DNA of 4,455 nt from a virus. Its lineage: Duplodnaviria > Heunggongvirae > Uroviricota > Caudoviricetes. Made by a program: the position numbers and the translations under genes. Location of the stretch: IMG/VR virus record IMGVR_UViG_2706794673_000001. One strand, given 5' to 3'. Below the pieces are notes generated by a model, which was not told the DNA's origin, did no database searches, and worked only from the letters and a program-made list of their open reading frames with translations. This document shows, one piece after another, positions 1,308-4,455 of the stretch (its first letter is position 1; each line of letters begins with the position of its first letter).

Positions 1308-3026
1308 GCCGGAAATCTTACCCCAACGTAAATGCTGCAAATCAGTATGCCCGGGATGTCGTGCGCGGAAAGATTGTTGCCTGCCAGTTTGTGATTCAGG
1401 CCTGCCAGCGCCATCTTGATGACCTGATGGCGGAAAAAAGTAAGTCGTTTCGTTACCGCTTCGACAAGGACCTGGCTGAACGGGCCGCGAAATTTATTCA
1501 GCTGTTGCCGCACACCAAGGGGGAGTGGGCATTCAAACGGATGCCCATCACGCTGGAGCCGTGGCAGCTATTTGTGATCTGCTGTGCGTTTGGCTGGGTC
1601 AATAAAGGCACCCGGTTGCGCCGCTTCCGGGAGGTGTACACCGAAATCCCCCGTAAGAACGGCAAATCAGCAATCTCTGCCGGTGTTGCCCTGTATTGTT
1701 TTGCCTGTGATAACGAGTTTGGCGCGGAAGTGTATTCCGGTGCCACGACAGAGAAACAGGCGTGGGAAGTCTTTCGCCCGGCGCGACTGATGTGTAAACG
1801 CACACCCATGCTGACGGAAGCGTTCGGGATTGAGGTTAACGCCTCAAACATGAACCGTCCGGAGGATGGCGCGCGGTTTGAACCGCTGATCGGCAACCCA
1901 GGTGATGGTTCATCACCCCACTGTGCCGTGGTTGATGAATATCACGAGCATGCCACCGATGCGCTTTATACCACAATGCTTACCGGGATGGGGGCGCGAC
2001 GTCAGCCACTGATGTGGGCCATCACCACCGCCGGGTACAACATTGAGGGGCCGTGCTACGACAAGCGGCGGGAAGTCATCGAGATGCTCAACGGCTCGGT
2101 GCCTAANNNNNNNNNNNNNNNNNNNNNNNNNNNNNNNNNNNNNNNNNNNNNNNNNNNNNNNNNNNNNNNNNNNNNNNNNNNNNNNNNNNNNNNNNNNNNN
2201 NNNNNNNNNNNNNNNNNNNNNNNNNNNNNNNNNNNNNNNNNNNNNNNNNNNNNNNNNNNNNNNNNNNNNNNNNNNNNNNNNNNNNNNNNNNNNNNNNNNN
2301 NNNNNNNNNNNNNNNNNNNNNNNNNNNNNNNNNNNNNNNNNNNNNNNNNNNNNNNNGCAGTTCGAGGGGCAGCCGTGCATTCTGGCCTTTGACCTGGCGC
2401 GTAAGCTGGATATGAACAGCATGGCGCGACTTTATACCCGCGAGATTGACGGTAAAACGCATTACTACAGTGTGGCCCCGCGTTTCTGGGTACCGTATGA
2501 CACGGTGTACAGCGTCGAGAAAAATGAAGATCGACGGACAGCCGAACGCTTTCAGAAATGGGTGGAAATGGGCGTTCTGACCGTTACCGATGGTGCGGAG
2601 GTGGATTATCGCTACATCCTCGAGGAGGCCAAAGCGGCGAACAAAATCAGCCCGGTCAGTGAGTCACCCATCGACCCCTTCGGGGCGACCGGGTTGTCAC
2701 ATGACCTTGCTGATGAAGACCTGAATCCCGTCACTATCGTCCAGAACTTCACCAATATGTCCGATCCGATGAAAGAGCTGGAAGCAGCGATTGAATCGGG
2801 ACGTTTTCATCATGACGGCAATCCCATCATGACCTGGTGTATCGGCAACGTGGTCGGCAAAAACATGCCGGGTAACGATGATGTGGTGAAACCCGTCAAA
2901 GAGCAGGCGGAAAACAAAATCGATGGTGCAGTTGCGCTGATTATGGCGGTTGGCAGAGCCATGCTGTACGAGAAAGAAGACACGCTGTCTGACCACATTG
3001 AGTCCTACGGGATCCGCTCGCTTTAA
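1304..3026 (+). CDS. Terminase large subunit (ATPase + nuclease), HK97-like; interior masked by N at 2107-2356
   Basis: N-terminal part (1304-2106, frame 2) carries Walker A PRKNGKS (1649-1669), Walker B AVVDEYHE and a TTAG coupling motif. C-terminal part (2357-3026, frame 0) carries RNase H-like nuclease motifs (ILAFDLA ... [13 protein letters not shown]) and ends IRSL-TAA at 3024-3026. Total span of about 574 codons fits a single uninterrupted TerL. The two visible parts are in different frames, and the 250-nt N block cannot reconcile them, so the mask length is probably not the true length. Confidence 0.9.
2107..2356. other. Masked / undetermined sequence (250 N) inside the terminase large subunit gene
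   Basis: Continuous run of n characters between the ATPase and nuclease domains of TerL. Confidence 0.95.
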
Positions 3027-3037
3027 CTGAGGTAATT

Positions 3038-3220
3038 ATGATCATGCTGATTCTCGCGCCTCTGGTGGGCGTGCTGGGTGCGCTTTTGCTGGCGTATGGT
3101 GCCTGGCTGATTTATCCCCCGGCGGGTTTTGTTGTTGCCGGGGCGCTGTGCCTGTTCTGGTCGTGGCTGGTGGCGCGATATCTCGACCGTACACGGCAGT
3201 CTGTCGGCGGAGGTAAATAG
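3038..3220 (+). CDS. Small hypothetical membrane protein (60 aa, two predicted transmembrane helices)
   Basis: ATG 3038 (second ATG at 3044) preceded by GAGG at 3029-3032 with 5-nt spacing, 11 nt after the TerL stop. Translation [60 protein letters not shown] has two hydrophobic segments separated by a PPAG turn and a basic C-tail. Its stop TAG (3218-3220) overlaps the portal GTG start by 1 nt. No similarity to a characterised family that I recognise. Confidence 0.55.
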
Positions 3221-4376
3221 TGTTCTTTTCGGGATTATTTCAACGAAAAAGCGATGTGCCGGTGACCACGCCAGCAGAACTGCTGATGCTATCGGGCTGT
3301 CATACGACACCTATACCGGAAAGCGGATCAGTAGCCAGCGGGCCATGCGCCTGACGGCGGTCTATTCTTGCGTCAGGGTGCTGGCAGAGTCTGTTGGTAT
3401 GCTGCCCTGCAGTCTCTACAAAATCAGCGGTACCCTGAAAACACGGGCGGTGGATGAACGACTGCATAAGTTGGTTTCGGCAAAACCTAATGGCTACATG
3501 ACACCGCAGGAATTCTGGGAGCTGGTTATTGTCTGCCTGTGTCTACGGGGGAATTTTTACGCCTACAAGGTAAAGGCACTGGGAGAAGTGGTGGAGCTTC
3601 TTCCGATAGATCCGGGCTGTGTGGAACCGAAGCTGAACAGCCAGTGGCAGCCGGTTTATCAGGTGACGTTTCCGGATGGTTCCGTGGATGTGTTGACCCA
3701 GAATGAAATCTGGCATGTGCGCACCCTGACGCTGGATGGACTTGTCGGGCTGAATCCCATTGCGTATGCGCGTGAGGCCATTTCACTGGCAGCGGCAACC
3801 GAGGAGCACGGTGCCAGGTTGTTTAGTAATGGTGCGGTGACATCCGGTGTGTTGCGTACGGAACAAAAGCTCACGCCGGATGCTTACGAGCGTCTGAAGA
3901 AAGATTTTGAGGAGTGTCACACGGGGCTTGGCAATGCTCACCGCCCGATGATTCTGGAAATGGGGCTGGACTGGAAGTCGATGGCGCTGAACGCCGAGGA
4001 CAGTCAGTTCCTGGAAACCCGCAAGTTTCAGCTGGAAGAAATCTGTCGTCTGTTCCGGGTGCCGTTGCACATGGTGCAGAACACCGATCGCGCCACCTTC
4101 AACAATATCGAAGAGCTGGGGCTGGGATTTATCAACTATTCACTGGTGCCGTATCTGACCCGCATCGAACAGCGGATCAACACCGGACTGGTACGAAAAA
4201 GTAAGCAGGGCGTTTATTACGCCAAATTTAACGCCGGGGCGTTACTGCGCGGGGATATGAAGTCCCGTTTTGAAGCCTACGCCACCGGGATCAACTGGGG
4301 AATTTACTCTTCCAATGACTGCCGCGACCTGGAAGATATGAATCCGCGTCCCGGTGGTGTAATGCCGATCAGTTAA
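3220..4376 (+). CDS. Portal protein, HK97 family; apparent frame disruption near 3305-3315 (possible pseudogene or sequence error)
   Basis: The body (frame 0, about 3300-4376: ...YTGKRISSQRAMRLTAVYSCVRVLAESVGMLPCSLY ... GINWGIYSSNDCRDLEDMNPRPGGVMPIS, stop TAA 4374-4376) is a typical HK97-type portal. Frame 0 has no ATG/GTG with an RBS after the previous gene; the ORF-track start at 3129 is a TTG buried in the small membrane ORF. A strong start exists in frame 1: GGAGG (3209-3213) then GTG 3220, giving MFFSGLFQRKSDVPVTTPAELLMLSGCHTT..., which stops at TGA 3352-3354. The frame-1 N-terminus and frame-0 body would join by a 1-nt change near 3308-3314. Confidence 0.8.
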
Positions 4377-4408
4377 GGATCAGTTGACCGATCCAGTGGC
4401 TGTGTAAG

Positions 4409-4443
4409 AATCCGGAAACGCTCACTTGTTTCCGGATTTTTTT
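4409..4443 (+). terminator. Rho-independent (intrinsic) terminator downstream of the portal gene
   Basis: Perfect inverted repeat: tccggaaac (4411-4419) pairs with gtttccgga (4428-4436), extendable by two A-T pairs (4409-4410 with 4437-4438). Loop is 8 nt (gctcactt), followed immediately by a run of 7 T (4437-4443). Orientation is + strand; on the - strand the hairpin is not followed by a U-tract. Confidence 0.7.
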
Positions 4444-4455
4444 ATGCACATTGGA

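Follow-up and report, generated by a model that had tools for sequence, protein, structure and literature searches.

The portal gene in the window, the whole stretch of 4,455 nt analysed here, is almost certainly a pseudogene of a degraded P27-like Shigella sonnei prophage with HK97-type head genes. It has suffered two independent lesions, and mutational decay, once selection has ceased to preserve the gene, suffices to explain its broken reading frame. Instead of a single uninterrupted ORF of about 413 codons, we found a frame that is broken at 3281-3283 and a 3' end that is replaced by the insertion sequence IS4 at 4360. Loss of one G at the first site changed the ancestral GAA CTG GCT GAT GCT (ELADA) into GAA CTG CTG ATG CTA, and ribosomes initiating at GTG 3220 would read 21 codons in the portal frame and then the wrong frame up to the stop at 3352. 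IS4 entered after base 4359, with the last 33 codons gone and VMPIS plus a stop added. In complete S. sonnei genomes, chromosomal genes (bamE or raiA) stand where protease, capsid and tail genes would be expected, probably through later recombination between IS4 copies. Because of the two lesions and the missing late genes, the locus is predicted to yield no functional portal, and virion production from it would be impossible. The features are collected in Table 1.

Table 1. Features of the portal region and of the IS4 junction (positions are those of the window)
Feature	Position	Strand	Remarks
ymfR-like ORF, 60 aa, hydrophobic	3038..3220	+	Between large terminase and portal genes; TAG stop 3218-3220 overlaps the portal GTG by 1 base
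Shine-Dalgarno GGAGG	3209..3213	+	6 nt 5' of the portal start; read directly from the sequence
Portal codons 1-21, original frame	3220..3282	+	Homologous to the intact portal N-terminus; aligned with the portals of phiP27 and of three E. coli prophages
1-nt deletion site	3281..3283	+	One G of ancestral CTGGCT missing; position within the G doublet ambiguous
Out-of-frame tail of the 44-codon ORF	3283..3354	+	LMLSGCHTTPIPESGSVASGPCA, then stop 3352-3354; without homologues
Portal body, codons 23-380 and first base of codon 381	3285..4359	+	Frame reached through the deletion; full Phage_portal domain
Internal ATG	3345..3347	+	Start chosen by gene callers for a 343-aa 'portal protein [Shigella sonnei]'; without Shine-Dalgarno
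12-bp IS4 target sequence GTCCCGGTGGTG	4348..4359	+	Second copy across IS4 in contig L020
Left end of IS4 (TAATGCCGATCAGTTAAGG...)	4360..4455	+	Runs off the window; gives read-through codons VMPIS and stop TAA 4374-4376
Predicted junction string, IS4 right end to late region			IS4 right end + GTCCCGGTGGTG + ATGTCTATCTC...

The gene order TerL, ymfR, portal is that of phiP27 and of E. coli prophages, which places the portal gene downstream of the large terminase gene in a head-morphogenesis module. In the window the portal start stands in the context GGAGG(3209-3213)TAAATA-GTG(3220), and the GTG homologous to 3220 is the annotated start of the intact portals in phiP27 and in E. coli RefSeq records, where it also overlaps the small upstream gene. 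These annotations confirmed the start that had been proposed in an earlier, sequence-only reading of this DNA from its Shine-Dalgarno spacing and its overlap with the preceding stop codon. As that reading had also stated, the frame opened at 3220 comprises only 44 codons and terminates at 3352-3354 in the ORF list. The adjacent frame forms an ORF at 3129-4376 that holds the whole Pfam Phage_portal domain (PF04860, E = 2.5e-107, profile positions 2-321 of 321). Before the conserved body this frame offers as in-frame starts only TTG 3129/3132/3135, which sit deep inside ymfR, and ATG 3345. None of these codons is preceded by a Shine-Dalgarno sequence, and the earlier description of a portal body lacking a canonical start and ribosome binding site of its own held.

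A protein look-up returned the exact product of the 3038-3220 ORF under the name YmfR [Shigella sonnei]. The homologous small gene at the equivalent position is annotated 'protein YmfR' in E. coli, where RefSeq names it 'ymfR', and 'membrane protein' in phiP27. YmfR appears as a two-helix hydrophobic protein of 60 aa that is conserved between TerL and portal in P27-, SfII-, ST64B- and e14-type prophages, and it belongs to no Pfam family. Its label 'head-tail joining protein W' in some phage records looks like a mis-annotation.

For localization of the break, window positions 3220-4359 were globally aligned with the homologues of phiP27 and three E. coli prophages, each of which is annotated with a 413-codon portal gene. 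Against each of the four intact homologues one gap was found in 1140 nt, a single base at 3281/3282, and the DNA alignments agreed. The ancestral allele of the 3281-3283 region is CTGGCTGATGC; the homologues read GA[A/G] CTG GC[N] GA[T/G] GCT ATC GGG (ELA[D/E]AIG) and the window GAA CTG CTG ATG CTA TCG GGC. Residues 1-21 of the intact proteins were matched by frame 1 and residue 23 onward by frame 0 (DAIGLSYDTYTGKRISS...). With the G restored, 380 codons are open, the product is identical to the phiP27 portal at 370 of the 380 positions, and the peptide across the junction reads ...PAELADAIGLSYDTYTGKR... (...PAELADAIGLSYDTYTGKRISS). The frame-1 text after 3283 has no counterpart in the homologues and no Pfam match, and a look-up by the 44-aa frame-1 product retrieved no recorded gene. 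A single indel separates the gene from its intact orthologues, and beyond it the homology resumes in the other frame, which marks the gene as a frameshift pseudogene.

The intact state occurs in many relatives, and the frame break is not a product of chance. A variable-gap pattern built from the window showed CTGGCTGATGC to be present and the portal frame to be open in a related prophage that is 94.8% identical (L021). Among the megablast matches listed for complete E. coli genomes and phage records, the full-length relatives had a subject interval 1 base longer than the query. In complete E. coli genomes the deletion was not found (0/5426), every match to a 56-nt probe spanning 57 nt. The repaired gene carries 9 synonymous and 4 non-synonymous lineage-specific substitutions, counts that are too small to indicate relaxed selection.

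The sequence-only reading had supposed one gene of a defective prophage, broken by a single-base indel near its 5' end, and this is borne out by single homologues that cover both frames in consecutive order and by the orthologous locus of related prophages, which is intact, 1 base longer and in a single frame. The place of the indel was misjudged. It had been put at 3306-3316, and the real site lies about 25 nt upstream; frame 1 had been regarded as plausible protein across 3300-3315, where its text is without homologues, and the repaired peptide ...CHTTPYTGKRISS (...CHTTPYTGKR...) derived at that place was wrong.

The same reading had left the choice between a sequencing or assembly error and a genuine mutation, and of these the genuine mutation stood. 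If the G had merely been dropped in the record, the gene would be intact in the organism; the deletion does fall in a short GG doublet, and both states are on record, since the unshifted product is encoded by 19 contigs named S. sonnei. However, a GG doublet is not an error-prone homopolymer, and eight assemblies with separate accessions, several of them complete chromosomes, agree at every one of the 241 nt around the break. The eight assembly places were those returned for the 343-aa product, most of them on contigs of 4.8-5.0 Mb, and the piece 2357-4455 was exact in all eight. The 41-nt deletion allele was present on all six IMG/VR contigs, five of which match the window at 100% and one (L020) at 99.95%. 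The 343-aa product (ATG 3345 to stop 4376), which arises only when deletion and IS4 are both present, was recorded in 1695 index blocks and on at least 1000 contigs, all named members being Shigella sonnei. Since the same sequence occurs in eight assemblies and six IMG/VR contigs and the product on at least 1000 contigs, a sequencing error was rejected as extremely improbable. The deletion and its recurrence across assemblies were observed directly, and judged by these records the deletion is a true mutation that is passed on within an S. sonnei lineage. Exact scans of genome_contigs, one for the shifted allele and one for either allele, gave 0 matches; S. sonnei evidently has no species representative there.

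With respect to the order of events, we built a hypothetical 385-aa protein that joins the repaired N-terminus to the IS4 tail and looked it up by exact sequence. An exact match, named 'portal protein [Shigella sonnei]', occurs on 19 contigs and confirmed the reconstruction residue for residue. This suggests that some isolates carry the IS4 insertion without the deletion, so that the deletion would be polymorphic in S. sonnei, and that the deletion may be younger than the IS4 insertion; the 19 unshifted contigs could in principle be assembly variants and not a true polymorphism. As the simplest history we infer an IS4 insertion, followed by the 1-nt deletion and then by the rearrangement.

Two readings would grant the broken gene a product in its present form. 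Programmed recoding, in which a -1 ribosomal frameshift or transcriptional slippage joins the frames and the full N-terminus is made, could draw on the overlap of the two frames over about 130 nt and on the strong start signal of the upstream frame. Yet the 3220 frame contains no X XXY YYZ heptamer in 3220-3354, and its only runs, TTTT at 3226 and AAAAA at 3246, lie far from the point at which homology switches (3282/3285). Moreover, the portal is encoded in a single frame in all homologues examined, so the two-frame layout is not conserved, and recoding would serve a gene without 3' end in a locus without capsid genes; we regard it as barely conceivable. Rfam searched at the gathering threshold gave nothing in the window. 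Alternatively, the body might be translated from ATG 3345 as an N- and C-truncated fragment with a retained or new role, e.g. to interfere with related phages entering the cell. This 343-aa product is the one that gene callers annotate, it keeps the Pfam portal domain complete, and in most assemblies the lysis, HNH and terminase genes beside it have stayed intact. Against such a role, the ATG has no Shine-Dalgarno sequence and follows the coupled start site at a distance of 125 nt, 42 N-terminal and 33 C-terminal residues are missing from the fragment, and there is no evidence of selection, the substitution ratio (9 synonymous : 4 non-synonymous) being uninformative. Translation into a functional fragment is therefore very unlikely. 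A more elaborate version has an equally slight chance: a deletion that is polymorphic (about 19 versus at least 1000 contigs), together with a 343-aa fragment expressed from ATG 3345 as a dominant-negative decoy against superinfecting P27/SfII-type phages. If true, it would explain the persistence of the remnant throughout the species.

The second lesion supports the reading as a decayed pseudogene and had been missed by the sequence-only reading. Homology to intact portals stops at 4359, and the sequence from 4360 matches IS4 copies in thousands of E. coli records. Its end at 4360 aligns with two annotated IS4 copies, one inserted in mlc and the other in a terminase gene. Codon 381 is interrupted, the last 33 portal codons are taken away, and VMPIS plus TAA is added. 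In L008 the element is 1426 bp long and encodes a 442-aa transposase with Nterm_IS4 and DDE_Tnp_1 domains. The terminal repeat TAATGCCGATCAGTTAAG has its counterpart in TAATGCCAGTCAGTTAAG at the opposite end of IS4. In sequence the window copy equals annotated IS4 copies or comes very close to them, and a target repeat of 12 bp is seen in the draft contig L020. It differs from a standard IS4 in that the copy in the complete S. sonnei genomes examined has lost the matching target repeat, and in that the copy in four assemblies (L003, L004, L005 and L007) is itself split by an IS3-family element. Megablast matches of IS4 extended 13-24 nt into the unrelated flanks of other copies (window 4341-4359 versus L013 and L014). 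This resemblance of flanks, e.g. AAACCGCGCCC...GGTC in mlc, hints at a preferred IS4 target sequence.

In the S. sonnei assemblies the region upstream of the window contains genes for an ORF6N protein, holin, lysozyme, Rz, HNH endonuclease and small terminase and for a large terminase that is intact at 577 aa; 3' of IS4, protease, capsid and tail genes are absent. Both the IS4 junction and the loss of late genes downstream of this site are direct observations. On the right, IS4 of L004, split by the IS3-family element (L004 7016-9777), is followed by bamE-recN-nadK, and IS4 of L008 (L008 7016-8441) by raiA-pheA-tyrA-aroF. No repeat of the target sequence was found in the right flanks of L004 and L008, and the two arrangements are consistent with an inversion between IS4 copies.

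The target repeat GTCCCGGTGGTG flanks IS4 in the draft contig L020, whereas complete S. sonnei genomes, whose right flank has been exchanged, do not have it. L020 keeps the frameshift, and past the right end of its IS4 (region 2819-4210) come GTCCCGGTGGTG, the remaining part of the portal gene and the genes for protease, capsid, connector and tail; the L020 proteins carry E. coli names. Part of this arrangement is an assembly artefact, for the contig contains an N and, next to an IS4 truncated at its 5' end, a near-duplicate of 386 nt. L020 indicates that IS4 probably first inserted in a simple manner, duplicating 12 bp of its target, and that recombination between IS4 copies would later have detached the late region in S. 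sonnei.

The closest known system is portal protein L38 of the Stx2e phage phiP27 (NP_543090.1), whose gene shares with the window the order HNH, cos, TerS, TerL, 60-aa membrane protein, portal. As in the window, L38 begins with a GTG that overlaps the upstream stop, and the DNA identity is 92.6%. The same portal gene is also present in SfII, SfIV, SfI, ST64B and many E. coli prophages. Genes of the phiP27 type are intact, with 413 codons followed by protease and capsid genes, whereas the window copy is without one G and is cut by IS4 after codon 380. In the e14 prophage of E. coli K-12, which we take to be a decayed defective prophage, ymfR presumably stands directly before beeE, a portal-family pseudogene. 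The host and the lesion differ from those of the window, and the likeness is one of layout.

Such a gene agrees with what has been published on genome decay driven by IS elements in Shigella, where IS1, IS2, IS4, IS600 and IS911 have expanded in all species (Hawkey et al., PMC7373316) and where about 12% of the interrupted genes of S. sonnei carry an IS together with another inactivating mutation (PMC7373316). For Shigella it is typical that a prophage structural gene bears an IS as well as a frameshift; this is ordinary, already understood prophage decay with no new mechanism. The annotation should read 'frameshifted; incomplete' and not 343-aa portal protein. In S. sonnei genomics, simple lineage markers could be made of the 1-nt deletion and the IS4 junction. 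Importance beyond annotation is small, and the S. sonnei locus is predicted to yield no phage.

Two runs of N in the window are masked sequence. The run at 706-991 has 286 N in place of 351 nt, covering the 3' end of the HNH gene, the intergenic region in which phiP27 has its cos site, and the 5' end of TerS; the run at 2107-2356 has 250 N in place of 261 nt inside TerL. Neither run has the length of the sequence it replaces, so that no meaning attaches to ORF frames that cross it. Frame changes in HNH, TerS and TerL were considered as further frameshifts and rejected as masking artefacts, because the N runs alter the length and TerL is intact (577 aa) in the unmasked S. sonnei assemblies. In two assemblies the small and/or large terminase is called in pieces (L006 3459-5682, L010 3461-5682) and in the other six both are intact, which may reflect either further decay in some isolates or errors of long-read assembly. 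At the beginning of the window, positions 1-363 represent the 3' part of the Rz spanin gene, for which a Phage_lysis domain is found in L003. A 60-aa ORF at 119-301 on the plus strand is embedded in Rz in another frame and has a lipobox-like VVGC and a proline-rich tail, features of a putative Rz1 in the classic embedded arrangement.
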